Source: Paraspadella gotoi (Eukaryota; Animalia; Chaetognatha). From it: DNA of 64,000 nt. The position numbers and the translations under genes are program-made. The notes under the pieces are model-generated. The model saw only the letters and a program-made list of their open reading frames with translations. It was not told the origin of the DNA and did not search any database. This document shows positions 2,384 through 53,498 of the stretch, one piece after another; positions within the stretch are counted from its first letter, which is position 1; every line of letters starts with the position of its first letter. The stretch is taken from positions 186,001 to 250,000 of the forward strand of contig CM119269.1 in NCBI GenBank assembly GCA_051294375.1. The letters are read 5' to 3'.

Positions 2384-3362
2384 NNNNNNNNNNNNNNNNN
2401 NNNNNNNNGCTTTTATGGGTCAAATGCAAATGAATCTTTTGATGATGATGTCAGAAATCGTAGTCTCTCTCTCTCTTTCTCACTCTCTCTCTCTCTCTCT
2501 CTNNNNNNNNNNNNNNNNNNNNNNNNNNNNNNNNNNNNNNNNNNNNNNNNNNNNNNNNNNNNNNNNNNNNNNNNNNNNNNNNNNNNNNNNNNNNNNNNNN
2601 NNNNNNNNNNNNNNNNNNNNNNNNNNNNNNNNNNNNNNNNNNNNNNNNNNNNNNNNNNNNNNNNNNNNNNNNNNNNNNNNNNNNNNNNNNNNNNNNNNNN
2701 NNNNNNNNNNNNNNNNNNNNNNNNNNNNNNNNNNNNNNNNNNNNNNNNNNNNNNNNNNNNNNNNNNNNNNNNNNNNNNNNNNNNATTTTCATCTGCAATT
2801 TAGTTTTCTTTTCTTATTTTATTTTACTTTTTCAAAATTGTACGTTAAGATACGCCCAGAAAACAAACCCGATGACAAACTCAGTGAAAATGAAAAAATA
2901 ACAAACTGGGACAAAAATATATTTAACACATCATAAGAAAAATTTCAAAGCCAGACAGCAAGTACGAAAAAGAGACAGAGAACAAAGTGGGAAAAAAGGG
3001 AGAGAATATGAATATGAATATGAAATAGACTAAACTGGGGCGCAATTTGCTGTGGCCCATGAGGTCATTTCGTTTACGAAAACTAAGTTAATGGTAAAAA
3101 TTCATTTTTAAAACTCATTTAAAATTAATTTTTAAAACGTGAAAATCCAAAATTTAAGAACTATGTACAGACTTTCAAATTGTTAGTACGTGATACTAAA
3201 ACCAGAAAAAGGAAAAAATTAATCAAAAATTACTAAAAAGATTGAAAGAGCTACAAACTGTAAAAAACGTTATGACGTAATTATGAAACCAGTTTAAGAA
3301 TAGAAATTGAATCAATTCAATTAACAAGTAATATTGGATGAAAAAAAAAACAAAAAAAAACT

Positions 3363-3727
3363 TTAAGACTCGCAATGACAGTCAAATCCAAAGAATGTGC
3401 TAAGGCAGATGTTGTCCGACTTCAGTTTCTCATAGCAGAGTTTCATTGGTGATATGTGTGTGTTCCATTTGTCGTTCTCTATGTTGTGTACTGTCCTTTC
3501 AAACATTTCATTTCCTTTGGTCACTTCAATTATTCTCTTCATTGCTCTTTTCTCAATCTGTTCTTTCATTTCTGTTGTACCTGCTGCATCATACACAATT
3601 TTTGAAGAGGTATGCATAGGCAGTTTTAAAAAGGTTTTTAGGGCTCTTATATTTAGTTTTTCCAATTTTTCTCATTAATACTTGTTTGTTGTAATCCATA
3701 CCAGACTGGAATAGTTTAAGACAGACA
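3363..3727 (-). pseudogene. C-terminal (thumb-region) remnant of a non-LTR retrotransposon reverse transcriptase
   Basis: One frame reads VSVLNYSSLVWITTNKY**EKLEKLNIRALKTFLKLPMHTSSKIVYDAAG...; this fits the LINE RT pattern 'S/P-x-L-x-Y-x-S-x-V-W...KL...N+ALR...P..TS'. Two in-frame stops. Second noisy copy at ~21945-22305. Confidence 0.6.
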
Positions 3728-5248
3728 CGACCAGAGAGAGAGAGTGACCGAAATAGGAGGCATGAAAACACTCTCCATAAATGGTTTGGATTTCTAATCC
3801 TTAGAGAACGAAACGGACGACGATGGAAAGAGAGAGAGAGAGTCTCTTATATTTTATAGTATAGTAATTTTCAATTTGTCTCACAGAAAACTAAAAATGA
3901 ATTTAACTTGGCCTAATTGAGGATAAAAGAGAGAAAGAGAATAATCGTAAAATAGGTAGGGATTTTTGAGCTACGTAACAAAAGTTGGTAAGTTTTTGAG
4001 TTACGTAACAAAAGTTGGTGGGTTCACGGCCAACGAAGTTGAAATTAGGCACGAAAACGTGGTAAGGCGAGTTGGCAGGAGAGAAGTCAGTCTGGCCTTG
4101 TCCTTAAACTTGGTGCGTAACGTTGGCCGGGAATTCGTCTACACCAATATTATGAATCTCTTAATCTTAAATCAACTAATTAAAAAAGAAACCAAAAAAC
4201 CAGTTTTATATTATGGTAATTAAAAAATTTAGAATTTGGTTATGCAACAAAAAATTAACAAGGTCATGACAAGATTTAAAAATGGGATTCTTTTCATAAG
4301 TTCAAATAGAGATAGAGATAAGATATTTCAATGTAAAATTTTGCTCAAATTATTATATTTTAATATGTAACTTTTTTTTGGTTCTATTGCAGCGTCTGAC
4401 GCCGAGAAATATGTCGCCCTGTCCTTCTTTAATTCTTATTACATTGATATTGATATCCATCCTCTCCTAGAGTGTCCATTGATTTAACCCGGCCGGTTAG
4501 AACTGGCACCATCGTTAAAAGAGAAGGTTAGTCCACGTGCGCTATTACGTATCCACGATGTGTACAAAAACTACACGATTTCAATTTCATTTTAAATTAT
4601 ATTTCTCCTTCTTTCATAGTTCTCATTACTTACTATTTCTTTGTCATTTCTATTTCTCTCTCCTCTTAATATATATTTGTCTTTCCTTTTCCTTTATGTG
4701 TCGCGGCTAACGATTCACTTTATTTTCTTCCTCAACCATAAACAAAAACAATCCTTCTCTCTTATTTTTCTTTTCAAAAACGAAGGGGAGAAGCACTCTT
4801 TGTATCAAGATTACCTCATAAAATCTGATGTTTTTGCTTGTTTCTCTGATGCTGCTTGCTTCTTTTACAATTCGCATTACAACATTATGAGATCATTTAA
4901 TGATTTTAATCTTCATGCCGCGCTGTCATTCTTTCCACACCTTACCTTCCATTCTCTCTCCTCACCATTCTTTACCTGAGATGAACTTACTTATCCGCAC
5001 CCAAGTTCGTTTCTCCTAACGACTCAATTGCCCCGCGCCGCCGCCGCCACCGCCGCGCCGCCGCGAGCCGCCTTTGTTTCCATCCTTTGTTTTTTTGTTT
5101 TTCTATCGTAAACAAAACAATTGTAGGCGAATTACATCTCTGTGTTTCGTGTTTGTTTTTGTTACTCGGTTTATGTTTTAGAAAATTTTCTCCCTTTACG
5201 ACTTCGGAGTCCGACTTGAATCTCGTAAAAAAAGGGGAGGGAAAAGTG

Positions 5249-5298
<50 letters not shown>

Positions 5299-7933
5299 CG
5301 AGAGCCATGAGAGACGAGAGAGAAGGAGAGATAATGAATGGCCTCTGGCTTATCAATCCTTCGCATCAGATAAAAAACTAGTTTTTTCCAGGCTTATTGT
5401 TCAGTTACTATTAAACAAATAAATTTAAATGCCCCATAATATAAATTATGGCCAAATACGGATTTTAGTTAAAACCATCTCCAGCTATTTAATCATATAA
5501 TAGTAACATTTTTGCAACTTTTAGGAAAAAAAAATCATGTCCATTTTTGTCCATTTTCACTTTCGTTCTTCAAAATTTGAAAATGCCAAAGGAAAGTGAG
5601 AAAATTGTTTTTTATTTTGGAATTCCTTTCTTCCTTTTTATCTTCTTCACCCTGAGGTAAAAATTATTTCTTATATCATTCATAGTTCACCTTATGAATT
5701 AATTTTAAAGTTTGACAAGTCAAAAAGTCGCAGTTTTAGTTTTATTTATATTTATTAAACAAAAATAGTTTAAATTGGCTTAAAACTAACAGCAAATATA
5801 GCCCACAGAATAAGGGCTTTTTAACACCTACAAATTATCAAAAAAAACTCATTTCGTTTAGCCATAGATAATTTTAAAGACGGAAAATTAATTTGTGACT
5901 TTTTGTGGACTTGCATGTTATTTTAATAAAGATAAGATTTTAAATTTATTTTATAGTTAACAGTTGAGGAACATACTGACGTTTAATATAAAACAAAAAA
6001 AAAACCGCATCGTTTAAACCCATGGAAAAGCTCAGGACTTGTTTTTTTCAGAATCGACATTATTTTGACGAAAATATTTTCCGCAAATTCTGTCGATTTA
6101 CTAAATTTGCCAGGCAACCAAAATTGCAAAAGAAAAATCATGCAGCATACCGTAAATTTCTTTTCTATAATGATATTAAGAATTTCTTTGATTTGGCTCA
6201 ATGTAAATGCAGAAAAAGTAGTGGGGATGGGAACAGGAAAGGAGAACAAGAAAAGAGAAGGGTGAGAATTGCAGAGAGAAAGGGGGAAAAGCATAAAAAG
6301 AAGGCAAAGGAGAAAAAAAAATAAGGAGATAAAGAAAGAAAGGCGGAAAAAGAAAGGGGAAAAATGAAAAATAAAAAAAAGGGGAAAAGAGGGAAAAGAA
6401 GAGAAGGAGATGAAGGCGTTATTAAAAAAGGGATAAGGAAAGTCAAAATCAGTGTCAGAGATAAGGTAGGGTCATAGAAACGGTAAGTTACGGCTGTGAA
6501 AAAAAGTAGGGGAGGAAAGAGGAAGGATAAAAATAGAAACACAAGAGGAGGAAAAGAGATAAGAAAGAATCAGGGAACAGTATGGAAAGGAAAAAAAAAT
6601 GTATTTCAGATTATGTGGCATCTTGTCTCTGAAAAGTTTTTGTGTAAATTAAAAAGCCACAAAAAATTTAAAAAAGAGGAATTGATCTTTTAAAAGGTTG
6701 TTAGCTACCATAAAATTCATTCATTACTTTCATCTCAAAATTAGGTTGTTAATGAGATTAGATTGATAATCTCCGAAGAAATCATGTCTTACCGTTATTT
6801 TTAACTCATTTAGAAATTTAACTGAACAGTACTAGGTAATTAAGAATTGAGATAACCATCAGCAAAACCGTGTTTTTTAAATAAAGAAAAACTTCATTAC
6901 TATCAACTGAAGATTCAAAAAGAGATGGTAATGTATTTAAGTTCAGAAATCGTTATCTAAAGGACGTCGATCGTACGTGGAGCCAATGGCGAATAACAAT
7001 GGAGGCGGAATTTTTTTAAGAATATGAAAATTCTTCTTTCCCCGAAATTTTGATTTTTTTTTTCTTGGAAATCGAATTTTTTTTCGAATTGAAAAATAAA
7101 AAAATATTTATGCATTTGGTTTAGACTAAACAATGAAATGAAAAATGTTTAAGAATGAAGAAGCGAAAACAATATGAGAAGAAATATGAAAGAGAGAAGA
7201 AGAGATAAGAGGGAGAAAGAGAGAAAGAGAAGAAGAGATAGGAGGAGGAAAGAGAGAAAGAGAAGAAAGAGTGAAAGAAAATATAGACTAAAAGAAATAA
7301 AAGCGAGAAGGGAATTGCTAGAATTTCACCCCGCCCATAAGAATGTCCTTTTCAGTCGTGACCAGGTGGCTCATCAATTAATGACCATCAGGTATGGGGA
7401 ATGATACCCAATGGGCCTACCCTTCCTGCATACCTATATGGAATTAGCCCGAGCCCGAGCCAGCGGCACAGATCCCACAGGGAATAGACAAGACCTTCAG
7501 AGATAAAACGTAATTATCACTCACAATTGAAATTATTTTAAACGATTTCATCTCAAAAATAAAAGAAGATAAACTAAAACGAAAAAAAAAAGAGAAATTT
7601 TAAAGGTCAAAATCAAAATCACAATCAAAATCATTTTCAGAGAGAAAAACGACAATAACAAAAAGAGAAAAGACAATAGTAAAAATAACAATAAGAGTCG
7701 AAACGAATCTAGTGGTCAGTTAACTATTTGACCTTAAGTCGTAGGTCACGATTTAGGTAAGTTTAAAAGTCGTTAAGGTTGTTGTTGTTGTCGTTGTTGT
7801 TGTCGTTGTTGTTGTCACCAAAGGTTTAAGTTTTACACGAAAGTCAAGGATTTCAATAAAACTGAATTCCAGATTTTTTCTCGAGATAAAAAAAACAGAA
7901 TTTCAATTTGATTCTTCCTTTATTTTCTATTAC

Positions 7934-8972: not shown

Positions 8973-9609
8973 TGTAGTCGGGCATTGCATAAGTTCACCC
9001 CGCCTATAAGCATGACACCTTCCGTCGTGACACGGTGGTTCATTGAGTAAAGGCATCAGTTCATGACCACTAGGTACCGGATTCAATCCGTAAGCCGCCT
9101 TGGGGTTGTGGAAAACCCTCAAGCCAGATTCCAAGACCAGGACCCGTTCCATGGCTGCTAGAGGGGCTTTAAGAGCCTGCTGATAGTACTCTTCACCCCC
9201 TCTTAGCGCCTTTTCCACATACCCATCATAAATTTTTTCTTTTTACTTTATTTTCTTTTTCTATTTTTCCCCTTCCACTTTTCTCTTCTTCTTTTTCTTT
9301 TTCTTCTTCTTCTTTCTCTTCTTCTGTGGATAAGGCGCTAAGTGGGCTGAAGATGACTATCCGTAACTTCTATAACCCCCTTTAGTAGGCATGGAACGGG
9401 TCCTGGGCTTGGAACCAGGCTTGAGGGGTTGCCACGCCCCCAAGGCGGCTTACGGCCGTCCTCACGCTTCCCGCAGGGTAGGTACCGGGTTGGGACTGAG
9501 CCCGGTACCTAGTGGTCATGAGCAGATGGCTTTACTCAATGAGCCACTGGGTCAGGACTGAAGGTGTCATGCTTAGAGGCGGGGTGATCCTAGGCAATGC
9601 CCGACTACA
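8973..9609. mobile_element. Foldback / long-TIR non-autonomous element (arms ~240-280 bp, CT-rich spacer)
   Basis: 8973-9218 is the reverse complement of 9326-9609 (TGTAGTCGGGCATTGC...GCAATGCCCGACTACA). Related arm fragments at ~7310-7390, 24260-24339, 31027-31111 and 40427-40520. No TSD seen. Confidence 0.75.
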
Positions 9610-10379: not shown

Positions 10380-11361
10380 ATCGGATTTGCTTATCAACAG
10401 ATTCCAACTCTATAATTCATTTTGTCGGTCCGTCGGTCTCTCCCCAAATCTTGTAGGTAAATCATTTTTATCATATCAACATCGAATTGTGATAAATTAT
10501 ACAAAAATGATGTCCGCCCGTCCGTTTGTACATCCGTCCGTCCATCCGTTCGTCCATACGTCCATCCATACGTCCCTTTATTTGTCCTACTTATCAATAA
10601 AACTCCAATTACTTGTGATTGGATGGTTGGATTGGAATTAAATTATGCGTGTGTAATTGAGCTAGATATAAAGTTGAGTGGAAATGAGTTTGCATGGAAA
10701 AAACCTAAATCAAGTTGACTTGAATTTTTATTATTTATGCTTACTCATAAATGTTTTAATTAATTAATTAAAATTAAAATAATTGAAGTTGAAAAAATTA
10801 TGAGAGTTAAAAAAATGATGTGAATTAAAATTAAAAAATTATGCAAGTTGAAAAAATATTGCCAGTTGGAAAATAATGCAAAGTGAAAAAAAGATGCAAG
10901 TTGAAAAAATGATGCAAGTTAAAAAATGGAGCAAGTTAAAAAAAAAGCAAATTNNNNNNNNNNGCAAGTTGAAAAAATAATGCCAGTTGGAAAATAATTC
11001 AAAGTGAAAAAATGATGCAAGTTGAAAAATTGATGCAAGTTAAAAAATGGAGCTAGTTAAAAAAAAAAGCAAATTAAAAAATGGTGCAAGTTGAATAAAT
11101 AATTAAATTTTAAAAATGATGCAACTTGAAAAATGATGCACTTTAAAAAAGAATAATAATAGTTAAAAAAACTATTTATACTTTATTTATAATTATTTCA
11201 TGTAATAACATGTATTGGCGCAGCCACTGGTTTGGTATGGTATGATCTGTTATGATCATTTAGGATCACAAATTGAAAGAATTATCGTGATTTATCATCT
11301 AATTAGCTGATTATTTCTTAATTATCGTAGGCAGATTCGACATTGTTTGCTCAAACTTGTT
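10380..11361 (+). mobile_element. Helentron/DINE-1-like non-autonomous element, family 1 (diverged copy)
   Basis: 5' tcggatttgcttatcaacagattccaact palindrome remnant, GTCC-type microsatellite, 3' end gcagattcgac-attgtttgctcaaac-ttgtt. Confidence 0.7.
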
Positions 11362-11748
11362 TAATGTTAATGCTCAAACTCAAACTAATGTGCAAACTAT
11401 TACAGGTTAAAATGACATTCTATATTAGCAGTTTCACTAAAGCCTGTCTAAAGATAGTCTTACATCTTGAGTCGAGATATATTATATTATATTATATTAT
11501 ATTAAAACAAAGATATGATGTGAAATCATCCTTGATTTACATAGTTTAATCAAAAAACCGAAAATGTATTTATATTATTATTTTTTTGTTGACCAGTAAT
11601 TTATATTGAAAAATAAAACTTGGTGCTAAGCTATCGAGCGATTATTTTTTTTTTTTAACTAAGAGAAGGTTGATATTTGAAATCTTGTCTCTTGAAGCTA
11701 ATTGGATGAAACCGGTTGAAAGATTTCATAATGAGCCTAATTTTTGCC

Positions 11749-11755
11749 TATAAAA
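11749..11755 (+). promoter_or_regulatory. Candidate TATA box of the secreted-peptide gene
   Basis: cCTATAAAAg lies ~170 bp upstream of the ATG. A splice acceptor (tttttttaatacag, ending 11904) just before the ATG implies a short 5' non-coding exon or a trans-splice site. Confidence 0.4.
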
Positions 11756-11921
11756 GAATATTTTTTTAAAATTATAGCTCAAACTGGTCATTTGAAAGGG
11801 AGGTTTATAACAGAACTCCCATTATTTCTTACCATTATTATAAATAAGCAGCATTTGTATTCTCAAATATTTTTTAAATACTTGATAAATTTTTTTTAAT
11901 ACAGATTGCAATATTGCAAAA

Positions 11922-12003
11922 ATGCAGAGGATATTTATTATTTGTTTTGCAGTGGTCAGCATGGTTGGATTCCTTTTGGCTGAAACCTCGTTTAAAACTA
12001 TAG
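11922..12003 (+). CDS. Secreted cationic peptide precursor, coding exon 1 (signal peptide)
   Basis: caaaaATG context; MQRIFIICFAVVSMVGFLLA-ETSFKTI has a basic n-region, a hydrophobic h-region and a likely cleavage after LLA; ends at a phase-1 donor ag|gtaaat. Confidence 0.75.
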
Positions 12004-12128
12004 GTAAATTGAATACCTAATGATGAAAGTTAGTGATAATGATAGTAATAAAAGTTAATGAAAATACCTAATGCAACCTAATGAACCAGCATTTTCTGAA
12101 TATAACCATAAGGAATAAAATACTCAGT

Positions 12129-12884
12129 AAGGCGGGCCAAAATTTATCACTTTTTACTATTAGGATTTCTGTAATACAAAGTTATTTTGTCCTTTATATA
12201 TTTAATCAATTTTTCCTATCCTTAAAAAATCCGTATCACTTTTTCTCTTTTTTGTGACGCATCGGGTGCATTTAAAGAAAAAAATTTAATTTTAATTTTT
12301 ATCTTAAATATTAACTTAATCATGTTAAGACGAAAGAACACACTATTTTTACTTATAGGAACAGGTTAAAAACCAACAGAAGTCCGGTATAAATATTGTT
12401 AATAAGTTTATTAAAGATCATTAAAATTAAAAAAATTAAGATTTATCTTATAGTTAAATGCATGGAAGCTATTTTATATTATTATATATTATACTATATA
12501 AGGTTAAAAAAATTTAATAGAGCTTAAAAAATTAGATGAAAGTTATTATTATAACTTTTTAAAATTTTAATGATTCCTTTATAAAAATTAAAAAAAACTA
12601 TAAAATTTAATGAATGATGATTTTAAGGTTTTTTTCTAATTTTAGTCAATTTATCATTAAAATTTTTAAAATTTGTAGTACTAACCTTTATCTAACTTTT
12701 TAATCTTTATCAGAATCCAATTTTGAAAATTTAAATTCTTTAAAAAAATTTTAGGCATTTCTTATATATTGTTAAATATTAAAATGCATCCATGCTTGAG
12801 GAAAATTAATTTAATTAAAATCTAACAGCATAAGTCAATTTGGTTGTAAAAGGACGAAAGATGTGAAATTCTGACCCGCCCTAA
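12129..12884. mobile_element. Probable MITE in the intron of the peptide gene
   Basis: Imperfect terminal inverted repeats taaggcgggccaaaattt / aaattctgacccgcccta around an AT-rich non-coding interior. Confidence 0.45.
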
Positions 12885-13901
12885 TATATATTTATATTAT
12901 TGCTTGTTATTGCCATTTATTTTAAACGCATATAGAATATCTATATGCTTTGATTATTTTATTAAGATACCAATTTTAACCCTGAACAAATTAAGAACTT
13001 TGTTCTAGAACATTTTTATTGAACCAAGTGGTTTTGACGAACTCTTGCAGCCGGCGCGCCGTCTGGAAAAAGTTGGCGATATCGTAAATTCGCCATAATT
13101 ATTCCTATTCTTAATCGCCTTCTTAATAATATAACATACAACTAGGAACATTAACATATTTAGTAGTGATTTTAAGCTCTAAACCGGCACAGAGCAAATT
13201 CAACCAATGTTGCATTCTTTTTTGTAGCGCAGCGTATTGTCAGGACATGAGAAAAATAAAACCTATCTCAGAAAGAGAAAGCATCAGTGATTATTTTAGT
13301 ATATTATTAAAAGACATTCAATAACTTTTTGCCTATAAAATCTAATTGTAAATACTATTCTAAGTTTTGATTCACTACCCTGTATCTTTTTTAACTAGTG
13401 AAGCATAGTATAACGTTGAAGCTTTTAAATATTTATCAGTGTATAAGCAATGAAAAATATTGGAGAAAAAAAATCATCATCATCAAAATGTTATGGTTTT
13501 TATAGTTTTTGCTATTTTGATCAACAAAATATAAGAATTTGGAAATTAGGTAATAATATTTATTTTTATTTTTTTAAGCTGTATCAGAATCCGTTTTTAA
13601 AAATTGTATCTCTGGAGGAATCTCTAACCTTATTTATATTACAGAACTCTTAGTTTTTAGCTTGTTTTGCCTTAATACTCTGACAAACTCCTCAACTGAA
13701 AAAGTAATTATTTTCGACTTAACAAAAAATAATAGAATCGTTACATTATTTACATAACAATACCCTAATTATATTCCCGCCAGTTTGAGATTAATCTAAT
13801 TATTTGTTAATGAATTAATTAATTAATCTATTTTTAACTTATTAATTAATTAATTAATTTATTAAATTAATTACTAAATTAACCTAATTATATTCCTGCA
13901 G

Positions 13902-14189
13902 ACGAACATATTGCCAGTTTGAGATCAATCCTGAGAAACATTCAAGACTCAGATCTGATGGCTGTCGAAAAAGGTTTTGAGAATGAAATGGAAAAACGTG
14001 AAGACCGCACAGTAAAAGACGATGATGACGATGATGACGACGCTGGCGTTCCGAACAACCATCGCCAAAAAGCGCTTACAGGCACAGATTAAGAAAAGGA
14101 AGATTCGGAACAACAAGAAGGAGATTTAGATTATTTAGATTTAGATATCGAAAGAACAAAAGCGTTTCAGGTTAATTTTGGGTTCCTAG
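13902..14189 (+). CDS. Secreted cationic peptide precursor, coding exon 2 (acidic propiece + Arg-rich mature peptide), copy A
   Basis: Acceptor tattcctgcag| joins exon 1 in phase 1, giving DEHIASLRSILRNIQDSDLMAVEKGFENEMEKREDRTVKDDDDDDDDAGVPN...; after ~14056 a few 1-nt indels (probably read errors) relative to the clean copy at 18581-18734. Confidence 0.7.
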
Positions 14190-14202
14190 TATCAATATGG
14201 AG

Positions 14203-14834
14203 TAAGCGGTCTGTAGTGAAAGTTAGGTACGAAAATTCTAAAGGTTAATTATGAACAACATACCATCAGTAAACATTAATTTGTAAAAAAAATTAATTTT
14301 ATGTTTTTTTTTAAATTTTCTCAGTTAGGCTAATATTTATATATAGTACTATTCCTTATAAAATCGAAAAAATTTCAAAATAGGCTTTTCTTAATATTGA
14401 TTGCAGATTTGAATTCCTCGTCAAAAGTTGATAAAATAAAATATAAATTATTTTTTTAAAAATTCTTTCATTAAGTGGGTTGAAAATTACAAAAACTATA
14501 GTTAATATATAAACAAGTTAATTTTCAGCTTAAACATATAGCATTTTCTAATTTTTGACCCACTTAATGAAGGAATTTTTTTAAAAAGAGTTATATTTCT
14601 TTTTATCAACTTTTTATGACGAATCCAAATCTGCAAAAAAAATTTAGAAAAAAACTGTTTTTGAAATTTTAACATTTATTGGATTAGTACTAGTATAAAT
14701 ATAGCCAACTGCGTAAATTATAAAATTTATTATAAATTTTTTTTATACATAATGTTCATTAGTATAATGTTTGTTCGTTCCTCACTTTTAGAATTTTAAT
14801 TAAAGTTAAATTTAGAAATTTTACTACGCGCTTA
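14203..14834. mobile_element. hAT-type MITE (8-bp TSD ATATGGAG), largely palindromic; copy A
   Basis: TIR TAAGGCGTAGT...ACTACGCCTTA (clean in copy B), flanked by direct ATATGGAG; long internal inverted repeat at 14368-14670. Confidence 0.75.
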
Positions 14835-15032
14835 ATATGGAGCCCTTGAAATACCTTATTTTATTTGTAATTTCACCATCTTTATCGATTCGTCTTTTCA
14901 TGGGCTATCTTTTGGTATTAGTTTCAAAAAAAAATTATCCTAGGGTGTTACAGGAAGCGTCAAAGTGATACGAGCATCAATGTATTATATTTTTTATAAA
15001 ATTATTTGCTGTTAAATGATGATAGAAACCAG

Positions 15033-15527
15033 TATGGTGGGACAAAAATCCACCCAACCGTTCATCAGCGCGCCATTGGTGCCTCCTCTTCATTCGTGAG
15101 CCCGACTTCCGAACACAACAGCAAACAACAACACTTTTCCAGGCGCACATGCCCTCAACCTGGCGATGCACTTTTCCGCCAACAAACACATCAGGCGACA
15201 TCTGCCTCAACTTGGTGCACACCACTTTCCACCAACAACAATTCACTGAAGAGACGTAACAGACTTCTCCCTACGGGAGTGGGGGCTGTATGGTGGACTA
15301 AAATCCACCAACCGTTCATCAACGGCCATTTTGGTGCAAAGGCAAGTCATTCGCTTCCCAACCCAAAGGTCTGTGGTTCTAGCCCGGTGCCGCCTAGCAG
15401 TTAAGTGGGACGGGGGCGCTTAAACCCCCTGCTTAACTCGGTGTTACAGCCTGATCCGAAAGCTCAGGGACTGCTTATATTGACGGTTTCATATCACTAA
15501 CACATAATAATAATTACTGTCTCTTCA
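15033..15527 (+). mobile_element. TRIM (miniature LTR retrotransposon) with tRNA-like LTR; copy A
   Basis: Same structure and CCAG TSD as 19335-19809, but noisier. Confidence 0.75.
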
Positions 15528-18500
15528 CCAGTTGTAATTGTAATTTTTTTATAAATTTAATTAATATATTTTGTGCGGAATTATTTATACTTAATTTCAG
15601 TTTAAAAGCTAAACCATAATTAGCGTGTTTTTTTCTACTCAACTAATTTTTTCAAAATCAATGAAATAACCCACTGCTGTTTGCAAATGACAGCATATTT
15701 CTACCGGCGCTTTGTAAAAATTGTCACCATGTATATGCACATTTAAAGTTTTATATCTGTTCTTTTAAGTTTCTTAAAATATTTTTTTATTGTGAAATTT
15801 CTAAGTTTAATTTTTTTTTTTTAATATGAATGAAAAAAAGTTCTAAAACTTTATTTGAGCAGGAATAAGTTGTTCTTATTTTTATTTTGTTTTTAGCATA
15901 TATTTTATTCAAAACTAATTTTAAAGTTATTTACTTAAGTGATAATTGCCATGCATTAAATAAAATAAAATTTTTAGCTTAAAACTATAAAAAAGTTTTG
16001 AACAAGTTTTCTTATCGTAAATAATTATCGTCATTTTTATTTGCTGTTGTTTTCCTGCTTAGTAGATCAGTCCTAAATCCGGGGGTTTTAAATGGTATGC
16101 AAGTCTTAATTGTAATAAATAATTGGAGAAATGTTTCACTGTTTTAAAAGTCAATAGTCATTTCTTAGTAAAATTACAACAACAATTTTCACCATATTTT
16201 CTATCTCTTTATAGCAGCTGAATTGTGTTAGTCGACTTATTTATTTGACCCTGCAAAAGGCTAGTCTATTTTTATTGGTTAAGTAATTTGTTGGAATAAA
16301 CTTAGATAAAACCATTTTACATTATAATCTATAAACAAAAAAACTTAAAAAAATGAGAAAGAAAGAAAGAAAGAAAAGAACAAGAAAGAAAGAAAGAAAG
16401 AAGAAAACGAAAAAGATGAAAAACAAGCTTTTTGTTGGGTCAAATGCACGAATGAAAGTCTTTTCGATGATGACGTATCAGAAATCGAATCTCTCTCTCT
16501 CTCTCTCTTCTCGTCCTGTCTCGTCTCTCTCTTTTTTTTTCTTTCTCTCCTCTTCGCCTAAAATTGCCATTCAATCATCCCATTCATACATTTTCCCTCA
16601 AGTCTCCATCATTCAACTTCTTTGATCCGATTAATCTTTACATATAACAGATATGGAAAACGTACATTTTATGAAAAGTCATGAGTTACTGTTAAGATTC
16701 ATGCAAAATGCAAAATGTAAAATGTAAAAAGTAGTTTATGCGGAATAAAAAAAACTTATCTGTAACTGTTTTTAACGCGTGGGAACCAGTATTGGAGTTT
16801 TGTAAGCAAGGTTGGAATGTTCTCAAAAAAGCACGAAATAAGGCTTTTCTTAAGTTTTCTGCAACGTTCTGGCTTGGGATTGAGAGACGCCTAAACTTGT
16901 CGGGTAAAGAGTTCATATCTTTACTTGAGTTAGTCCTTCGGGTTTTGTTTGTCGTGGCGATCTTAAAGTACATTTTTGAAAAGTGAAACATAAGAATAGA
17001 ATGAGAAAGAAAACTAATTGGCAGATGAAAAGGAAAGAAATAACAAAACTGGGAGCAAAAATATTATTTAAGGCACATCATAAGAAAAATTCAAAGCCAG
17101 GACAGCAAGTACGAAAAGAGGACAGAGGAAAAATGGATAGGGAAAGAAGCGGAGAGAGGAGAGACGAGAGAGCGAGAGAGAGAGAGAGAGGACCGAAATA
17201 GGAGCATGAAAACACTTCTCCATAAATGGTTTGGATTTCAGAATCCTTGGAGAGAGCGAAGACGGAAGGCGCGCATGCGAAAGAGAAGAGAGAGAGAGCA
17301 GCAGACGAAGAGAGAGAGAGAGAGAGCGGCAAGAGGCGAGTGTGTCAGTTCAGGAAAGAGTGTCACATAGGGAGAGCGTCCTCTAGACGATGATAAACGC
17401 GAGGAGAGAAAAAAGAGAGAGAAAGAAAAATGGCGAATTCAAAGTGTTTTATCGCATTAGTTATTGGCGTAATTGTTTAGCGATAATGCGATAATCCTTG
17501 TCATGAATTTAACTCTAAGTGATAGACTCTTTTTTAAAGAAAATTTAAATATAAGGATCGGTCGATCAATGACCTTTGAAAAATCAAAACAAATGTTACG
17601 GCGGACGCATGATTTTTATTTCTTGCAGTTCTGGTAAAACAGGGTTTAGCGCTTTAAACATAAGAAGTCTTTAAGTAGGTTGCATTAGGTTTTTGAGTAA
17701 GAAATCATTTGCAGCAGCAATATTGGCCGAACAAAAGTTTGAATAAAATTTTAAAAAAAAAGAAAACTTGCGGAAATAAAAAAAGAGAAAACATTTTATT
17801 TTGAAGAAGCTAACACCAAATTCTAAATGATGCTCTTTTTGTCATCTTCTATGTCATGTACAGCAAATGTTAAATTGTATTTGTTGCACATTGAGGCACA
17901 GTAATTATTTGAAGATGGCCTTTCATATTGTTAAACGGTCTAGTGAAGGAATAAAACGAAGGAAAAAATTTTTGGCGAGAACTTGTAAAAACTGGTCACA
18001 CTGGCTTTCAGCGTCGTTAAGAGATGGAAACTTAAAAAAATAAACGATGCAAGGCATATTAATCAGGTTGTATTGAAATTCTGTAACTTTAACTGTAAAA
18101 ATTTGTACAAATGAAGCCCTGAAAAAAATGACAGAGGTATAGAAATATTGGGTATAGGCCGAGATAAATTGTTTTTTTATCAATCGTCTGCGTCTGTGTT
18201 TTTAGGTCGGGATCTGGCTTTGCAGCAGGGATCCCGACTCTATATCGACTTTGTTGGTCTGCTCGCGCGTCTGCACCCTGATTGATTTACGTCGGGGCAC
18301 TCACTGTATATTGCAGTGGTCAGACATCGAGATTATGATAAAAGTATGCGAAAAAAAGATGGATGTCCGTCCGTTCGCGGGTCCGTGGTCCGGTCCGGTC
18401 CGTCGTCGCGTCCTCCGTCGTCCGTCCTCCTGGGCCGTCCGGGTCCCGTGCCACGCTGGTGAGCAAAAAACAGCCAATTACTGCGGTGCCATTGGTGTTT

Positions 18501-18580: not shown

Positions 18581-18734
18581 TGATGACGACGCTGGCGTTC
18601 CGAACACCATCGCCAAAAAGCGTTACAGGCCAAGATTAAGAAAAGGAAGATTCGGAACAACAAGAAGGAGATTTAGATTATTTAGATTTAGATATCGAAA
18701 GAACAAAGCGGTTTCAGGTAATTTGGGTTCCTAG
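18581..18734 (+). CDS. Secreted cationic peptide precursor exon 2, copy B (5' part lost in gap, otherwise clean)
   Basis: DDDAGVPNTIAKKR-YRPRLRKGRFGTTRRRFRLFRFRYRKNKAVSGNLGS*; a possible donor tcag|gtaatt after AVS could change the last residues. Confidence 0.7.
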
Positions 18735-18747
18735 TATCAATATGGAG

Positions 18748-19144
18748 TAAGGCGTAGTGAAAGTTAGGTACGAAAATTCTAAAGGTTAATTATGAACAAC
18801 ATACCATCAGTAAACATTAATTTGNNNNNNNNNNNNNNNNNNNNNNNNNNNNNNNNNNNNNNNNNNNNNNNNNNNNNNNNNNNNNNNNNNNNNNNNNNNN
18901 NNNNNNNNNNNNNNNNNNNNNNNNNNNNNNNNNNNNNNNNNNNNNNNNNNNNNNNNNNNNNNNNNNNNNNNNNNNNTTTTAACATTTATTGGATTAGTAC
19001 TAGTATAAATATAGCCAACTGCGTAAATTATAAAATTTATTATAAATTTTTTTTTATACATAAATGTTCATTAGTATAATGTTGTTCGTTCCTCACTTTT
19101 AGAATTTTAATTAAAGTTAAATTTAGAAATTTTACTACGCCTTA
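18748..19144. mobile_element. hAT-type MITE, copy B (spans an N gap)
   Basis: ATATGGAG(18740-47)|TAAGGCGTAGT ... ACTACGCCTTA|ATATGGAG(19145-52). Confidence 0.8.
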
Positions 19145-19334: not shown

Positions 19335-19809
19335 TATGGTGGACAAAAATCCACCAACCGTTCATCAGCGGCCATTGGTGCTCTCTTCATTGGTGAGCCC
19401 GACTTCCGAACACAACAGCAACAACAACACTTTCAGGCGACATGCCTCAACCTGGCGATGCACTTTCCGCCAACAACACATCAGGCGACATGCCTCAACT
19501 TGGTGACACACTTTCCACCAACAACAATTCACTGAAGAGACGTAACAGACTTCTCCCTACGGGAGTGGGGGATGTATGGTGGACTAAAATCCACCAACCG
19601 TTCATCAACGGCCATTGGTGCCAAAGGCAAGTCATTCGCTTCCCAACCCAAAGGTCTGTGGTTCTAGCCCGGTGGCCGCCTAGCAGTTAAGTGGGACGGG
19701 GCGCTTAACCCCCCCTGTAACTCGGTGTTACAGCCTGATCCGAAGCTCAGGGACTGCTTATATTGAACGGTTCTATCACTAACACATAATAATAATTACT
19801 GTCTCTTCA
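19335..19809 (+). mobile_element. TRIM with tRNA-like LTR; copy B (cleanest)
   Basis: TSD CCAG on both sides; internally deleted 5' LTR 19335-19389 (TATGG...TCTCTTCA); PBS TGGTGAGCCCGAC at 19391 (12/13 to the canonical tRNA-Trp PBS TGGTGACCCCGAC); 185-bp non-coding interior with a ~50-bp tandem duplication; PPT GGGAGTGGGGGA at 19561-72; full 3' LTR 19575-19809. Confidence 0.8.
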
Positions 19810-20867: not shown

Positions 20868-23853
20868 AAATAAAGAAAAAAAAAAAACAAGAAAGGAAAG
20901 AAAGTAAGAAAAAAAGAAAAGAAAGAAGAAAAAGATTGAAAAAAAGCCTTTTATGGGTCAAATGCAATGAATCTTTTGATGATGACGTCAGAAATCGAGT
21001 CTCTCTCTCTCTCTCTCTCCTCTCTCTCTTCTTTTCTCTCTCTCTCTCGCTTAAATTCCATTCAATCATCCATCATACATTTTCCTCAAGTCTCATCATT
21101 CAACTTCTTTGATCCGATTAATCTTTACCATATAAGATATAAAGTACATTTATGAAAAGTCAATTACTTAAGATCATGCAAAATGAAAATGTAAAATGTA
21201 AAAAGTAGTTTAGCGGAATAAAAAAAACTATCTGTAACTTTTTAAACGCGTGGAACCAGTATTTGAGTTTTGTAACAAGGTTGGAATGTTCTCAACAGAC
21301 GAAATAAGGCTTTCTTAAGTTTTTCGCAACGGTTCTGGCTTGGGATTGAACCAAACTTCGGTAAAGAGTTCATATCTTTACTGAGTTAGTCTCGGGTTTG
21401 TTTTTGGGCGATCTTAAAGTACATTTTGAAAAGTAAAATAAAAATAAGAAAGAAAACTAAATTGCAGATGAAAATGAAAAAATAACAAACTGGGACAAAA
21501 TAATATTTAGCACATAATAAGAAAAAATCTCAAAGCCAGACAGCAAGTACGAAAAAGAGACAGAGAACAAAGTGGGAAAAAGGAGAGAGGAGAGTTGAAT
21601 ATGAATATGAATAACTAAACTGGGGCGCAATTTCTGTGGCCATGAGGTCATTTCGTTACGAAAACTAAGTTAATGGTAAAATTCTTTTAAAACTCATTAA
21701 AAATTAATTTTAAAAAACGTGAAAATCCAAATTTAAGACTATGTACAGACTTTCAATTGTTAGTACGTGATACTAAAACCATGAAAAAGGAAAAAATTAA
21801 TCAAAATTAACTAAAAAGATTGATAAGAGCTACAACTGTAAAAAAACGTTATGACGTAATTATGAACCATTCTTAAGAATAGAATTGAATCAATTCAATC
21901 ACAAGTATATTGGAACGGAAAAAAAAAAGAAAAAAAGAAAACTTCAAGACTCGCCATGACAGGTCAAATCTAAAATCTAAGGCAGATGTTGTCCCGACTC
22001 AGTTTCTCATAGCAGAGTATTGGTGGATATGTGTGTGTTCCATTTGTCGTTCTCTATGTGGTGACTGTCCTTTCCAAAACATTTCATTTCCTTGGTCACT
22101 TCATAATTATTTCTCTTCATTGCCTCTTATTCTCAATCTGTTCTTTTCATTCTGTTGTACCTGCTGCATCATACACAAGTTTTTGTAAGAGGTATGCATA
22201 GGCAGTTTTAGGTTTTTGGGCTCTTATATTTAGTTTTCCATTTTTCCATTAATACTTGTTTGTTGTAATCCATACCCAGACTGGAATAGTTTAAGACAGA
22301 CACGACCGACGAGAGGAGAGTGACCGAAATAGGCAGGCATGAAAACACTCTCCATTGAAATGGTTGGATTTCAAATCCTTGGTAGAGAACGAAACGGACG
22401 ACAGATGGAAAGAAGAGAGAGAGAGTCTCGTTATATTTTATAGTATAGTAATTTTCAATTTGTCTCACAGAAACTAAAAATGAATTTAACTTGGCCTAAT
22501 TGAGATAAAAGAGAGAAAGAGGAATAATCGTAAATAGGTCAGGGATTTTTTGAGACTACGTAACAAAACGTTGGTAAATTTTGAGTTACGTAACAAAAGT
22601 TGGTGGGTTTCACGCAACGAAGTTGAAATTAGGCACGAAAACGTGGTAAGGCGATTGGCAGGAGAGAAGTCAGTCTGGCCTTGTCCTTAAACTTGGTGCG
22701 TAACGTTGGCCCGGGAATTCGTCTACACCAAATATTATGATCTCTTAACTTAATTCAACAATTTAAAAAAGGAAACCAAAAACCAGTTTGTATATTTAAT
22801 GGTAATAAAAATTTAGAATTTGGTTATGCACAAAAATTAACCAAGGTCATGACAGATTTACAAAATGGATTCTTTTTCATAAGTTCAATAGAGATAGAGA
22901 TAAAGATATTTCCAATGTAGAAATTTGCTCAAATTATTATATTTTAATATGTAACTTTTTTTTTGGTTCTATTGCAGGCGACTGCACAAGGAAGTTATCG
23001 ACCGCTGTTCTTCGTTAAATTCTTATTACATTGATATTTGATATCCTCCTCCATAGGAGTGTCCATTGATTTAACCCGACGGGGTTAGAACCTGGGACCA
23101 TCGCATTAAAAGAGGAAGCGTTAGACCAGTGCGGCTATTACTAATCAACGATGTTACAAAACTACACGATTTCCCAATTTCATTTTAAATTATATTTTCT
23201 CCTTTCTTTCATAGTTCTCATTACTTACTATTTTCTTTGTCATTTCATTTCTCTCTCCTTCTTAATATATATTTGTCTTTCCTTTTTCCTTTATGTTGGT
23301 CGCGCTGAACGATTAACTTTATTTTCTTCCTCAACCATAACAAAACAATTCCTTCTCTCTATTTTTCTTTCAAAACGAAGGGAGAAGACACTCTTTTGGT
23401 ATCCAAGATTGACCTCATAAAATCTGATGTTTTGCTTGTTTCTCTGATGCCTGCTTGTCTTCTTTTACAATTCGCATTACAACATTATGAGATCATTTAA
23501 TGATTTTTAATCTTCATCGCGCTGGTCACATTTTCTTTCCACACGCTTACCTTCCATTCTCTCTCCTCACCATTCTTTACCTGAATGCACTTACTTATCG
23601 CACCCAAGTTCGTTTCTCCTAACGACTCATATTCGCCGCCCGCCACCGCCGCCGCGCGAGCCGCCTTTTGTTTCCATCCTTTGTTTTCCTTTGTTTTTCT
23701 ATCGTAAACAAAACAACTTTGTAGGCGAATTACATCTCGTGTGTTTACGTGTTTGTTTTTGTTACTCGGTTATGTTTAGAAAATTTTCTCGCTTTAGGAG
23801 ACTTCGAGTCCGGACTTGAATACTCGTAAAAAAAGGAGGGAAAATCAGCAGGA

Positions 23854-23935
<82 letters not shown>

Positions 23936-24369
23936 TGAAATGGCGAATAACACATGAGGCGGAATTTTTAAGAATAGGAATTTATTTATTTCCCGAAATT
24001 TTGATTTTTTTTTCTGAAATCGAATTTTTTATCGAATTTTGAAAAATAAAAAAAAATATTTTATGCATTTGGTTTAGACTAAAACAATGAAATGAAAAAG
24101 TGTTTAAGATGAAGAAGCCGAAAAACTATGAGAAGAAATATGAAAGAGAAAGAAGAGAAAAGAGGGAGAAAGAGAGAAGAGAAGAAGAGATAGGAGGAGG
24201 AAAGAGAGAAGAGAAGAAAGAGTGTAAAGAAATATAGACTAAAGAAATAAAAAGCGAAAGGGAATTGGCTAGAATTCACCCGCCATAAGAATGTCCTTTT
24301 CAGTCGTGACCAGGTGGCTCATCAATTAATGACATCAGGNNNNNNNNNNNNNNNNNNNNNNNNNTTATC

Positions 24370-27300
24370 TGTGGAAAGCCATCTAACGCTTACTTATATT
24401 AAAAACTCTTAGTGTTTGTAGGGTTCTTGTTTTGCCTAACTCTGACAAACTCCCTCAACGCTGAAAATCAATAACGTATAACCTTTATCGATCTTTTAAC
24501 AAAATAATAAGTAGCGAATTCAGTTTAATATATACTAATCAATTCCAGCGTCGACCTAATTATATCCCCCGCCAGGTTTGAGATTAACTCATTATTTTGT
24601 TATATAAATGAATACCCGATGAGATTTAATCATTTCTCTTTCCATAACCATTAATTAATTAATAATATTAAATTAATAACTCACTGCTAACAGCTAACGT
24701 CGCTCACTGATTCATTACGTACTATAGTGCTAGATTCATCACCATGCTTCCACTTTGCACATACATGAACTCGTTCTACACTGTGCCTACGCGACCGTCT
24801 TAGAGATCAATCTAGTCACTCGGGAAGCGCAGAAACGATCACGTACTCCAGATCTGGATGGCGCATTGTCGAAAAATTATTGAAATGAAAGGAAACCTGA
24901 AGACGCAAGGTATAGACTCGATCGATGAACGCTGATGACGACCTTGGCGTTCCAACACACTCGCCAAAAAAAGCGTTACAGGCCACAAGATAAAAAAGAA
25001 GATCGCGAACACAAGGAAGGGAGAATTTAGATTATTTTTAGATTATTTAGATTTAACAAAGATATCGGAGTAAGAACAAAGCGGGTTCAGGCTAATTTAT
25101 GCTCCGCCTAGGTATCAATATGGAACATAAAGCTTAGCTTAAGTATGAGTACCACGAAAATTCTCAAAGCGTTAAACGAACAACCAACCATCAGTACAGA
25201 TAGCAATTAGTTACAAAAAAATAATTTTTATGTTTTTTAATTTCTCAGTAGGCTAGTATCTATACTATATCAGTACTATCCTATATAAATCGAAAAAATT
25301 TCAAAATAGCTTTTCTTAACTTTTGCATTGCAGATTATTGAAATTCCTTCGGCAAAAAGATTGATAAAAAAAATATAATTTATTTTTTAAAAATTTCTTC
25401 ATAAGGGATATGTGAAAATTTTATCAAAAACATAGTTTGAATAATATAAAAGTTAACTTTTCACTTTTAAATATTACAGTTACTTGAGCACTTACATGTG
25501 ACAGCTTCAATGAGACTTCTTTTACAAAAGAGTTATACGTCTTTTTATCAACTTTTTATGACGAGATCCAAAATCTGCCAAAAAATAAAAAAAACTTGTA
25601 GAAAAAAACTGTTTTTGAAGATTTAACATATTCTGGAGATTCGTAGTACTAGTCTCACAAATAGTAAGCCAACTGCGAATATTATGAAAATTTATTATAA
25701 ATATTTTCTTATATCATAATGTTCAGATTAGGTCACTTTAGTATAAATGTGTTCGTTCCCCACTTATTTAGCATAATTTTTAATAACGTTAAATTAGAAA
25801 TGTTACTACGCCTCTAGATAGGACCTTGAAATACCTTTATTTATTTGTAAATCACAATCTGTTTATCTGGATTGCGTCTTCTTCATGGGAGGCTGTGGCT
25901 GATCTTTTAGGTCAGTATTAGTGTCAAAAAAAAAAATCTATGCTCTAGTGGTGTACAAGAAGTCGTGTTCAAAGTGTACGAGCATCAACTTATCCTATAT
26001 TTTAAGTAATAGAAATTATTTGTGTTACAAATTGACTGAGAAAACCAGATATGGTGGACAAAAAATGCCACCAACCGTTCACTCACTGGGCCATGTGAGT
26101 CGCTCACTCTCATTGGGTGAGCGTCGACTTCCAGAACACAACAGCAACGAACAACACGTTTCAGGGCACATGCCTCAACCTGGGCGACTGCACTTTCCTC
26201 CTAACAACACATCAGGCGACATGTCCTCAATTGTGACACACTTCACCAACAACCATCACTGATAGAACTACAGACTTCTCGCCTCACGGAGGGGGGATGT
26301 ATTGGTGGGACTAAAATCCATCAAGAAGACCGTTCAATCGACGGGCCACTTTTGGTGCCAAAGAGGCAAGTCATTCGCTTCCCAAACCCAAAGGTCTGTG
26401 GTTTCTAGCCCGGTGGCGCCTCCTAGCAGTATTAAGTGGGCACGGGGCGCTTAATCCCACGGCCCTGTAACTCGCTGTACAGCCTGATCGAAAGCTCAGG
26501 GAGCATGCTTATCATCATGAACGTTCTACTTCAGCTTAACACATAATAATACATTTACTGCTCTTTCGACTCAGTTGTAATTGTAAATTTTTTATAAATC
26601 TTATTAATATAAATTTGTGCGCGATTATTTAACGTAATTCTCAGTTTAAAAAGCTAAACCATAATTAGCGGCGCGTTTTTTTTCTACTCAACTAATTTTA
26701 AAATCAATGAAATAACCACTGGTTTGCAAATGACAGCATATTTCTACCGGCGCTCTGTAAAAATTGTCCACATGTATATGCACATTTAAAGTTTTATACT
26801 TTCTTTAAGTTTCTAAATATTTTTTATGTGAAATTCTAAGTTTAATTTTTTTTTTTAATATGAATGAAAAAGTTCTAAAACTTTATTTGAGGCGGATAAT
26901 GTTGTTCTTATTTTTGTATTTGATTTTTGCATATTTTATTCAAACTAAATTTAAAGTTATTTACTTAAGTATAATTAGCCATGCATTAAATAAAATAAAA
27001 TTTTTAGCTAAAACTTATAAAAGTGAAAAGTTTTTCTTATCGTAAAGTAATTATCGTTCTATTTATTTGCTGTTGTTTCCTGGCTTAGTAGATCAGTCCT
27101 AAGATCCGAGGGGTTTTAATGGTATTGCCAAGTCTTAATTGTAATAATAATTGGAAAATGTTTCACTGTTTTAAAAGTCAATAGTCATTTTTAGTAAAAT
27201 TACAAACAATTTTCACATATTTTCTATCTCTATTGCTATAGCAGCTGAATTGTGTTTAGTCGACTTATTTATTTGACCCTGCAACAAAGGCTAGTCTATT

Positions 27301-27505
27301 TTATGGGTAAGTAAATTGTTGAATAAACTTAGAATAAAACCATTTTACATTATAATTATAAAAAAAAAAACTTAAAAAAAAGAGAAAGAAAAAAGAAAGA
27401 AAGAAGATGAGAAAGAAAAGAAAGAAAGAAAGAAAGAAAAAGATGAAAAAAAGCTTTTGTGGGTCAAATGCAAATGAATCTTTTGATGATGACGTCAGAA
27501 ATCGA

Positions 27506-27544
<39 letters not shown>

Positions 27545-28153
27545 TTTTTTTTTCTCTCTCTCTCTCGCCTAAATTCCATCAATCATCCATCATTACATTT
27601 TCTCAAGTCTCATCATTCACTTCTTCTGATCCGATTAATCTTTACCATATTAAGATATAAAGCATTATAAGCATATTATAGTATATAAATAGTACAGTTA
27701 TCATGCAAATGAATAAGTATAAATGCATTACATGATGCAAAATGAAAGTAAAATGTTAAAATAGTTTAGCGGAATAAAAAAAACTATCTGTAACTTTTAA
27801 ACGTCGTGGAACAGTATTGAGTTTTTGTAACAAGGTTGGAATGTTCTCAACAAGACGAAATAAGGCTTTCTTAAGTTTTCTGCAACGGTTCTGGCTTGGG
27901 ATTGAACCAAACTTCGCGGTAAAGAGTTCATATCTTTACTGAGTTAGTCTTCGGGTTTGTTTCTGGGCGATCTTAAAGTACATTTTGAAAAGTAAAATAA
28001 AATAAGAAAGAAAACTAAATTGCAGATGAAAATGAAAAATAACAAAACTGGGACAAAATAATATTTAGCACATAATAAGAAAAATCTCAAAGCCAGACAG
28101 CAAGTAGAAAAAGAGACAGAGAACAAAGTGGGAAAAAGGAGAAGAGGAGAGAT

Positions 28154-28186
<33 letters not shown>

Positions 28187-28286
28187 CCGAAATAGGAGGC
28201 ATGAAACAATCTCCATAAATGGTTTGGATTTCAAATCCTTGGAGAAACGAAACGGACGACGATGAAAGAAAGAGAGAGAAGAAGAG

Positions 28287-28323
<37 letters not shown>

Positions 28324-29400
28324 GAAGAGGGAGTGTGTCAGTTCAGGAAAGATTCAATAGGGAGACGTCCTCTTAAGACGATGATAAACGCGAGAGAGAA
28401 AAAAGAGAGAGAAAGAAAAATGGCGAATTCAAAGTGTTTTATCGCATTAGTTGATTCTAGATTTTTACATAATCATAATCCTTGTCATAATTTAACTCCA
28501 AGTGATAAGACTCTTTTTTAAAAAAATGTTGAAATTATAAGGATCGTCGATCAATGACCTTGAAAAAATCAAAAAAATGTTACGTCGACTAGCATGATTT
28601 TTATCTTTGCAGTTTGTAAAACAGGTTTAGCGCTTTAAACATAAGAAGTCTTTAAGTAGTTGATTATTTTGATAAGAAATCATTTGAGAGCAATGATTGC
28701 CGAACAAAAGTTTGAATAAAATTTAAAAAAACTTGGAAATAAAAAAAAGAAAAACATTTTATTTGAAGAACTACACCAAATTCTAAATATGCTTTTTTTG
28801 TCATCTGTTATGTCATTTACAGAAAATGTTAAATTTGTATTTGTTGCACATTTGAGGAGCAGTAATTATTTAAATGCTTTCATTATTTTAAACGGTTAGT
28901 GAAGGAATAAAAGAAGAAAAATTTTGAGAACTGTAAGAACTGTCAACTGCTTTCAGCGTTTAAGATATGAAACTTAAAAAAATAAACGATTGAAGCATAT
29001 TTAATCATTGTATTAAATTCTAACTTGTAACTTGTAAAAATTTTTACAAATGAAAGCTAAAAAATGAAAGGATAAAATATTTATAGCAATAAATTTTTTT
29101 TTATCAATCTCTCTCTGTTTTTTAGTCGGATCTGCTTTCAGCAGATCCCGACTCTATAATTCACTTTGTTGGTCTGTCGGTCTGCACCCTCAATATTATC
29201 GGGCACTCACTTATATCATGTCAGAACATCGAATTATGATAAATTATGAAAAAAAAAATGATGTCCGTCCATCTGTCCGTCCATCCGTTCGTCCGTCAGT
29301 CCGTTCGTCCATTCGTCCGTCCCACCTTACCAAAAAATACCAATTACTCGTAATTGGATAGATGAATTGGAATGAAATTTTGTGAGTGGGTAGGGAAGTG
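24370..29400. repeat. Segmental duplicate C of ~13610-18555 (very noisy 5' half)
   Basis: Colinear; contains degraded copies of exon 2 (~24790-25111), the MITE and the TRIM (~26050-26570). Confidence 0.85.
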
Positions 29401-52970: not shown

Positions 52971-53498
52971 GTCTGTAACTCTTATAATCCTACCGTCTCG
53001 CTTTACTAATTGGCCGGAGGCCGCTGGGATTGAATGTCGTTAGTAACGTAGCGGCTTTTTCAAATCTCCGATACAAACTGTTAAAACGTGAGAATCACCA
53101 GCAAGAAAAGAAAAAGCATCTGGGAAAATATTGCATGTTTTAAGTTATTATGCAACAAATATTTAAATTTATTACAACATCATAAATTTTTGACATATGA
53201 ATTATCATACAAACTTTCCCTTGTTAAATAAAGCCAAATTTAAGGTTTAAAGTAAAATATTCTTCTTCTATAGAAGGACTTAATAATTAGTATGAATGAA
53301 ATAAAATCATAAACATTTCATTTTTATTTATGTTAAAAACGATTTTAGAACAAATTTGCCAGCTTTTATAGTCTACCTACAAAGATATTTTAACCATACA
53401 TGAAATTTTAAAATACATAAGAAATAAATTGATGAACAAAATCAAAGAAAAACATGAATTTATACTTTATACTTTATACTTTAACATGAATTTATACT

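Follow-up and report, generated by a model that had tools for sequence, protein, structure and literature searches.

The window, meaning the whole 64,000-nucleotide stretch of DNA that was analysed, contains a gene with two coding exons on the forward strand (Table 1). This gene is real; its structure, its splice, the open frame of its transcript contigs and its composition were all observed. The encoded precursor starts with 20 signal-like aa and continues with a propiece predicted to be helical, followed by an internal KR, a spacer with an Asp run, a KKR and a tail of 36 residues.

Table 1. Features of the two-exon gene, its further copies in the assembly and its flanks, in window positions.
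Feature	Position	Strand	Remarks
Candidate TATA box	11749..11755	+	sequence motif; second TATAAA at 11839
T-run and CAG, possible 5'UTR intron acceptor	11890..11904	+	sequence and rise in X1 depth; putative
Coding exon 1	11922..12003	+	27 codons and 1 base, GT donor next; single copy in the window
Signal peptide (predicted)	11922-11981	+	20 aa; the remaining 7 residues of exon 1 belong to the propiece
Intron	12004..13901	+	1898 bases, GT..AG, phase 1
Coding exon 2, copy A	13902..14189	+	stop 14187-14189
Predicted helical part of propiece	13904..13999	+	ends in internal KR, 13994-13999
Acidic spacer with Asp run	14000..14056	+	10 D/E in 18 residues, net -8
3'UTR as covered by contig 5	14190..14300	+	X1
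Copy B, exon-2 end	18581..18824	+	open 18582-18734; adjoins N gaps; agrees with transcript
Copy C	24382..29322	+	very noisy; spans the intron end, exon 2 and DNA downstream of it; exon 1 absent

Gene structure and transcript contigs

The acceptor AG of exon 2 lies at 13900-13901 and is preceded by a pyrimidine tract. After the phase-1 join the frame is open in copy A from 13904 to about 14056, and the assembled sequence of this copy then breaks the frame near 14057, 14075 and 14172-14176. Copy B is open to its stop, with the KKR at 18615-18623, the predicted mature peptide at 18624-18731 and the stop codon at 18732-18734. The X1 contigs are likewise open where copy A is broken.

X1 is a public sequencing run from one study; its RNA nature is a guess, and no run is recorded as RNA. 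The run contains 0.27 of the sampled words from 13902-14340. One X1 contig (depth 124.5) includes the last 20 letters of exon 1 and, at the place of the predicted intron, lacks 1898 bases that begin with GT and end with AG. The skip coincides exactly with the canonical, phase-1 splice from 12003 to 13902 that an earlier note on this DNA had proposed. This joint was the only GT..AG joint among the 15 joints listed of 22 for X1 over 11300-14700, and its support consists of one contig from one run with a short side of 20 letters, less than is comfortable for such a joint, at a site predicted beforehand.

Contigs 4 and 5 of X1 tile 13900-14300. Contig 5 (14042-14300) departs from copy A in 5 substituted letters and 8 gap letters. 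Copy B has substitutions relative to copy A at these five places too, and its net difference in length from copy A is also 8 letters. Contig 5 therefore agrees with the earlier reading of the C-terminus, in which copy A was joined to copy B. Contig 4 spans 13900-14072 with 4 letters fewer than copy A, so that 249 coding letters remain; these make 83 codons, the last of which is the second K of the KKR. The whole-codon count of contig 4, taken with the match of contig 5 to copy B in the differences listed, indicates that the transcript is open and encodes about 120 aa. The gene model of the earlier note thus stands, while its length of about 121 aa is not exact. The same contig arithmetic places the Arg-rich frame in register, and an acidic +1 frame of the tail was rejected on these grounds. 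Within 13972-13976 the transcript departs from copy A at three places, so that a few of the propiece residues quoted earlier are probably read errors. A third X1 contig, with a depth of about 40 (258.5 less 124.5 and 93.6), spans 14057 and contains neither 13972 nor 14084; it may represent an allele or a paralogue.

The X1 depth was zero in 4 of 30 bins, three of them upstream and one intronic, and 543 of 851 X1 records were less than 95% alike to 11300-14700. This pattern suggests RNA with cross-matches from repeats, unlike genomic DNA. Two runs from other organisms in the same study, X2 and X3, matched only repeats (5 and 1 records, respectively).

The bin 11870-11983, which includes the position of the ATG, has an X1 depth of 59, although direct coverage of the ATG is uncertain. 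Depth upstream of 11870 is 0-0.2 and rises to 59 across that position. This near-zero depth leaves the candidate TATA box unsupported as a real promoter; TATA motifs number 4 upstream, compared to 2.5 in shuffles. An additional non-coding 5' exon may precede the two coding exons. No kB-like site was found in 720 bases upstream, an uninformative count given that 0.02 were expected. On the other side, a high-copy repeat begins near 14213 (to 14420), just past the stop, and reaches an X1 depth of about 23,000 at 14243-14246. A second repeat of very high copy number lies at 11320-11361 (X1 depth about 26,000).

Two counts describe how unusual the gene is within the window. Among 650 open 22-codon ATG starts, 2 are signal-like, and only the start at 11922 is accompanied by a donor. 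An acidic block followed by KR and a basic/aromatic block occurs at one place in all six frames. The thresholds for these counts were chosen after the finding was known, so they serve as a sanity check and carry no p-value. In an assembly as noisy as this one, automatic annotation would overlook such a gene.

Copies of the locus and the surrounding window

Over 14667-15618 (959 columns), the differences between copies A and B comprise 37 indel events and 5 transversions, with 0 transitions. Copies A and C differ by 241 indel events and 109 substitutions in 2310 columns. In three dispersed repeat pairs, by comparison, transitions are at least as numerous as transversions, and there are far fewer indels per substitution than between the exon-2 copies. 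In addition, copies B and C begin at N gaps and exon 1 is absent from both. Judged from these sequence differences, copies A, B and C likely represent a single locus that was assembled more than once from noisy reads. A tandem gene family was rejected because 1-bp indels dominate the differences between copies, unlike those of the dispersed pairs, and copy B was rejected as a second gene because it is likely an assembly duplicate. No true paralogue was found within the window. The earlier note had spoken of a peptide family; its extra copies are likely duplicates of this kind, and relatives were not found in the searches that were run.

Further pairs of near-duplicate blocks lie at 49905-51121 and 51829-52971, at 46460-47166 and 51122-51838, and at 2885-5342 and 21469-23944; most of the differences within these pairs are again 1-bp indels. 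Such blocks are likely assembly duplicates, so this assembly is not a reliable guide to copy number.

The window is AT-rich (GC 0.25-0.49 in 2-kb bins), with 14 N gaps, abundant AG microsatellites and many near-duplicate blocks. No Rfam family was identified in it, and a Pfam scan of 53 of 80 selected open frames gave 2 sub-threshold matches and no convincing domain. The style of the genome suggests an invertebrate animal. A dispersed element of about 240 bases (15289-15527, 19575-19809 and 55952-56183; 85-90% alike) appears SINE-like by eye and has no Rfam match at the gathering score. Tandem satellites (45316-46499 and 54814-55327) comprise an array with a 64-base unit and a second array that self-BLAST identified. 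A GC-richer repeat forms an inverted pair at 8973-9219 and 9325-9609 (73% alike), with a related copy within 5-2158. The region 32000-39000 is GC-richer, contains no microsatellites and resembles a mobile element in decay; none of the frames scanned there had a passing Pfam domain. Lastly, a 12-base repeat at 61310-61372, kin to the AGATTT hexamers of the peptide core, is Arg/Phe-rich in one frame and has no signal or start context.

The precursor and its predicted function

The signal-like segment has a best 11-residue hydropathy of 2.99, and its cleavage is predicted after residue 20, a site placed by the -3/-1 rule. The propiece contains 19 D/E (1 in exon 1, 1 in the junction codon and 17 in exon 2), and an uninterrupted run of eight Asp occupies 14018-14041; our recount reproduced both figures given earlier. 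Its net charge is about -11 on one side of the KKR, compared to +14 for the tail on the other. The predicted helical part of the propiece has a helical moment of 0.83, equalled by 17 of 1000 shuffles, which marks a real amphipathic signal, and the AlphaFold2 model places helices at residues 2-11 and 15-36 (mean pLDDT 70.6, single-sequence). The layout of signal, acidic spacer, basic site and cationic peptide that had been described is supported, although the description of the propiece omitted the internal KR.

The tail, read from copy B, is 36 aa long and contains 11 R (31%), 3 K, 0 D/E and 0 C, which is the composition reported earlier. It has a mass of 4475 Da, a net charge of +14, a pI of 12.0 and a GRAVY of -1.34, with 6 aromatic residues (4 F, 2 Y), 1 P and a final Ser. 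The tail is not an amphipathic helix. Its best 11-residue helical moment is 0.51, which 946 of 1000 shuffles reach, and its strand hydrophobic moment is also ordinary (reached by 436 of 1000). Despite the poor helical moment, AlphaFold2 puts a helix at residues 28-42 of the 50-aa tail piece; both AlphaFold2 models are single-sequence models of 50 aa with a pTM of 0.30. Four further dibasic places lie within the 36-mer. The R/F core of the tail sits on AGATWW hexamers, and AGA accounts for 8 of the 11 Arg codons.

Searches for relatives used pieces of 27-50 aa, from which distant relatives could escape, and the sensitive phmmer search covered the propiece only. In the word index of longer proteins the copy-B piece had 11 candidates and the propiece 3, none of which scored; the near-length index gave the propiece 0 candidates. 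Phmmer returned nothing for the propiece among 1.84 billion representatives at E up to 0.001. The Pfam pieces were scanned separately, which lowers sensitivity; exon 1 matched 0 families at E up to 10, and the propiece had one sub-threshold match to DUF6432 (E 0.018). PDB sequences gave only 2 chance matches (E 0.41). In the ESM Atlas no relatives of either piece were found, and recognition was low (1049 and 2103), a result that says nothing on whether the gene is real. The earlier failure to recognise a relative therefore holds across the word-index, phmmer, Pfam, PDB and Atlas searches. These blank results are weak evidence of novelty, as small eukaryotic secreted proteins are possibly thin in the sets. 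A description of the peptide was not found in the literature by topic, nor were four tail motifs found in the literature searched, where sequence tables in supplements could still contain the peptide.

The best reading of the sequence is a precursor of an orphan host-defence peptide, a predicted function that we consider reasonably probable. The first 20 residues would route the protein into the secretory pathway, and the propiece would bind and mask the tail in transit. A prohormone convertase would then cleave after the KKR, and probably after the internal KR as well, which would free the tail with a free C-terminus. The Arg residues of the tail may bind anionic microbial surfaces while a Phe/Tyr/Leu core anchors the peptide, and killing could follow from disruption of the surface or from entry and nucleic acid binding. 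A classical pore of amphipathic helices is unlikely, since charged and apolar residues are not segregated on a helix.

The splice with its open frame, the signal-like start with a donor that is unique in the window, and the split of charge around the KKR suggest such a defence precursor. There is precedent for the charge arrangement. Short anionic propeptides neutralise the cationic mature peptides of the sea-urchin centrocins and strongylocins (PMC10608444), and anionic propieces do so in alpha-defensins and frog peptides (PMC7073735). The absence of homologues also fits lineage-restricted defence peptides, as described for Hydra (PMC10945409). Several points count against a defence role. The tail has low hydrophobicity, its helical and strand moments are unremarkable, and no homologue anchors the function. 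The four dibasic places in the tail could split the 36-mer into short pieces. The gene has no true paralogue within the window, although clustering is common among genes of this kind (PMC10945409). Lastly, the same layout is also used for venom peptides and hormones.

A secreted structural, adhesive or reproductive-fluid peptide is unlikely. Its Arg/aromatic tail would cross-link anionic polymers of mucus, cement, egg coat or sperm surface by cation-pi contacts and by pairing of charges, and the Asp run would provide solubility or bind mineral. The non-amphipathic, very hydrophilic tail, the single gene, the low-complexity blocks and the lack of a family match all agree with this role, but the clean convertase site between the charge blocks suggests a released peptide, the protein is small, and repeats and Cys are absent. 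We regard it as rather unlikely that the peptide comes from a venom or defensive gland and harms animal cells, a role suggested by analogy with the precursor layout of spider linear cytolytic peptides. Those precursors typically have an acidic propeptide that mirrors the cationic peptide, and the present internal site, with Glu at -3 and Arg at -1, formally agrees with the definition of the spider processing motif, PQM (PMC8290080). However, Glu is absent from -2 to -4 of the site that precedes the cationic peptide, and the tail lacks both an amphipathic helix and appreciable hydrophobicity.

A neuropeptide or peptide-hormone precursor appears improbable. Its basic clusters would be processing sites that yield receptor ligands, either short peptides or the propiece helix. 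The KR and KKR sites, the acidic spacer and the further dibasic places in the tail are what such a precursor could contain, and a Gly-Arg-Phe-Gly stretch, which we take to resemble RFamide, also counts in its favour. On the other hand, no Gly followed by K/R ends a peptide after the RF motif, paracopies and a C-terminal amide signal are lacking, and a Pfam hormone family was absent from all three pieces. Neuropeptides are usually conserved enough to be detected, and none was detected here. It is very improbable that the locus is no working protein-coding gene but a spliced non-coding or decaying transcript, with the Arg/Phe pattern arising from an AGATTT-type repeat. The hexamers beneath the R/F core, the predominance of AGA codons and the similarly R/F-rich non-coding repeat near 61310-61372 would be explained in this way, Atlas recognition is low, and there is no homologue for a selection test. 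Against it, a signal-like exon, an in-frame canonical splice, an open contig frame and the order of helix, KR, acidic spacer, KKR and basic tail all coincide.

Within the preferred reading, that of a host-defence precursor, a bolder version is speculative and on balance doubtful. The gene would be the first member of a new antimicrobial family that is restricted to its lineage and consists of Arg/Phe peptides without Cys or amphipathic character, with a core built from AGATTT hexamers inside a secretory cassette, a two-part propiece (a helix and an excised Asp-run spacer) and intracellular killing by nucleic-acid binding, not by helical pores. As a Cys-free 36-mer of charge +14, the peptide is cheap to synthesize and can be tested directly. 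If active, it would bring a further natural scaffold, based on Arg and Phe, to the linear defence peptides of invertebrates that have no Cys, which are few in the account of PMC10608444. The precursor layout is already well known and no principle is overturned; the sequence is what is new.

Comparison with known precursors

The precursor is built like those of the myticalins, the arminins, the spider linear peptides and the frog skin peptides, and by the features compared it belongs to none of these groups. The last three had been named earlier as analogues. That analogy is overstated; these are generally regarded as helical peptides, and the present tail has no amphipathic helix, no terminal Gly and no PQM in front of it.

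Frog dermaseptin-type precursors consist of a signal, an acidic propiece, a KR and a cationic peptide, with an intron a few codons past the signal. Their signal and propiece have a profile in Pfam, and the exon 1 piece matched no family there. The likeness lies in the order of signal, acidic propiece, dibasic site and cationic peptide and in the acidic charge of the propiece (PMC7073735). Compared to the frog precursors, the present propiece is much longer and partly helical, and the tail is Arg-rich and non-amphipathic.

Spider linear cytolytic peptides form an amphipathic alpha-helix, which is absent from the tail (moment 0.51). Their simple precursors have a signal, an acidic propeptide mirroring the cationic peptide and one peptide before the stop, as found here (PMC8290080). 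The spider peptides are released at a PQM, mostly EEAR, whereas the present site is a KKR lacking Glu (A-K-K-R). A PQM is defined by an Arg at -1 and a Glu anywhere from -2 to -4 (PMC8290080); here only the internal site, which the acidic spacer follows, agrees with this definition.

The Hydra arminins and the placozoan arminin-like peptides share a signal, an acidic N-terminal part, a basic C-terminal active part and a lineage-restricted distribution (PMC12013895, PMC10945409, PMC11767717). Arminins are described as alpha-helical, with a C-terminal Gly (amidated), and as clustered paralogues confined to Hydra (PMC12013895, PMC10945409, PMC11767717). The present tail differs in that it ends in Ser, is non-amphipathic and is single in the window. 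No match was found in the word-index or phmmer searches; the final Ser in place of Gly sets the gene apart from the arminins as they are described.

The group C myticalins of Mytilus, such as C9 and C10, are also similar (PMC5577615). Their mature peptides are linear, Cys-free and rich in Arg and aromatic residues (23-42 aa, pI >11), and their precursors share a signal, a dibasic site, an anionic propiece and a phase-1 intron with the present gene. The myticalin criteria given there are no Cys, pI >11 and >10% Arg; the tail has 0 Cys, a pI of 12.0 and 11 Arg in 36 residues. Myticalin genes also have an intron just before the ATG, which in the present gene is suspected (PMC5577615). Sequence similarity to the myticalins was not found. 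Their signal consensus starts with MKG, and the exon 1 translation differs. In addition, the order is reversed: a myticalin precursor has its mature peptide after the signal and its anionic piece at the C-terminus, whereas here the acidic part comes first and the cationic part runs to the stop (PMC5577615). Myticalin C9 has 32% Arg, is not Pro-rich and has a MIC of 2 uM against S. aureus, with a mode of action that is unresolved (PMC5577615). C9 is the best compositional counterpart with measured activity. If the present peptide is active, it would represent convergence on the composition of the group C myticalins with the opposite precursor order.
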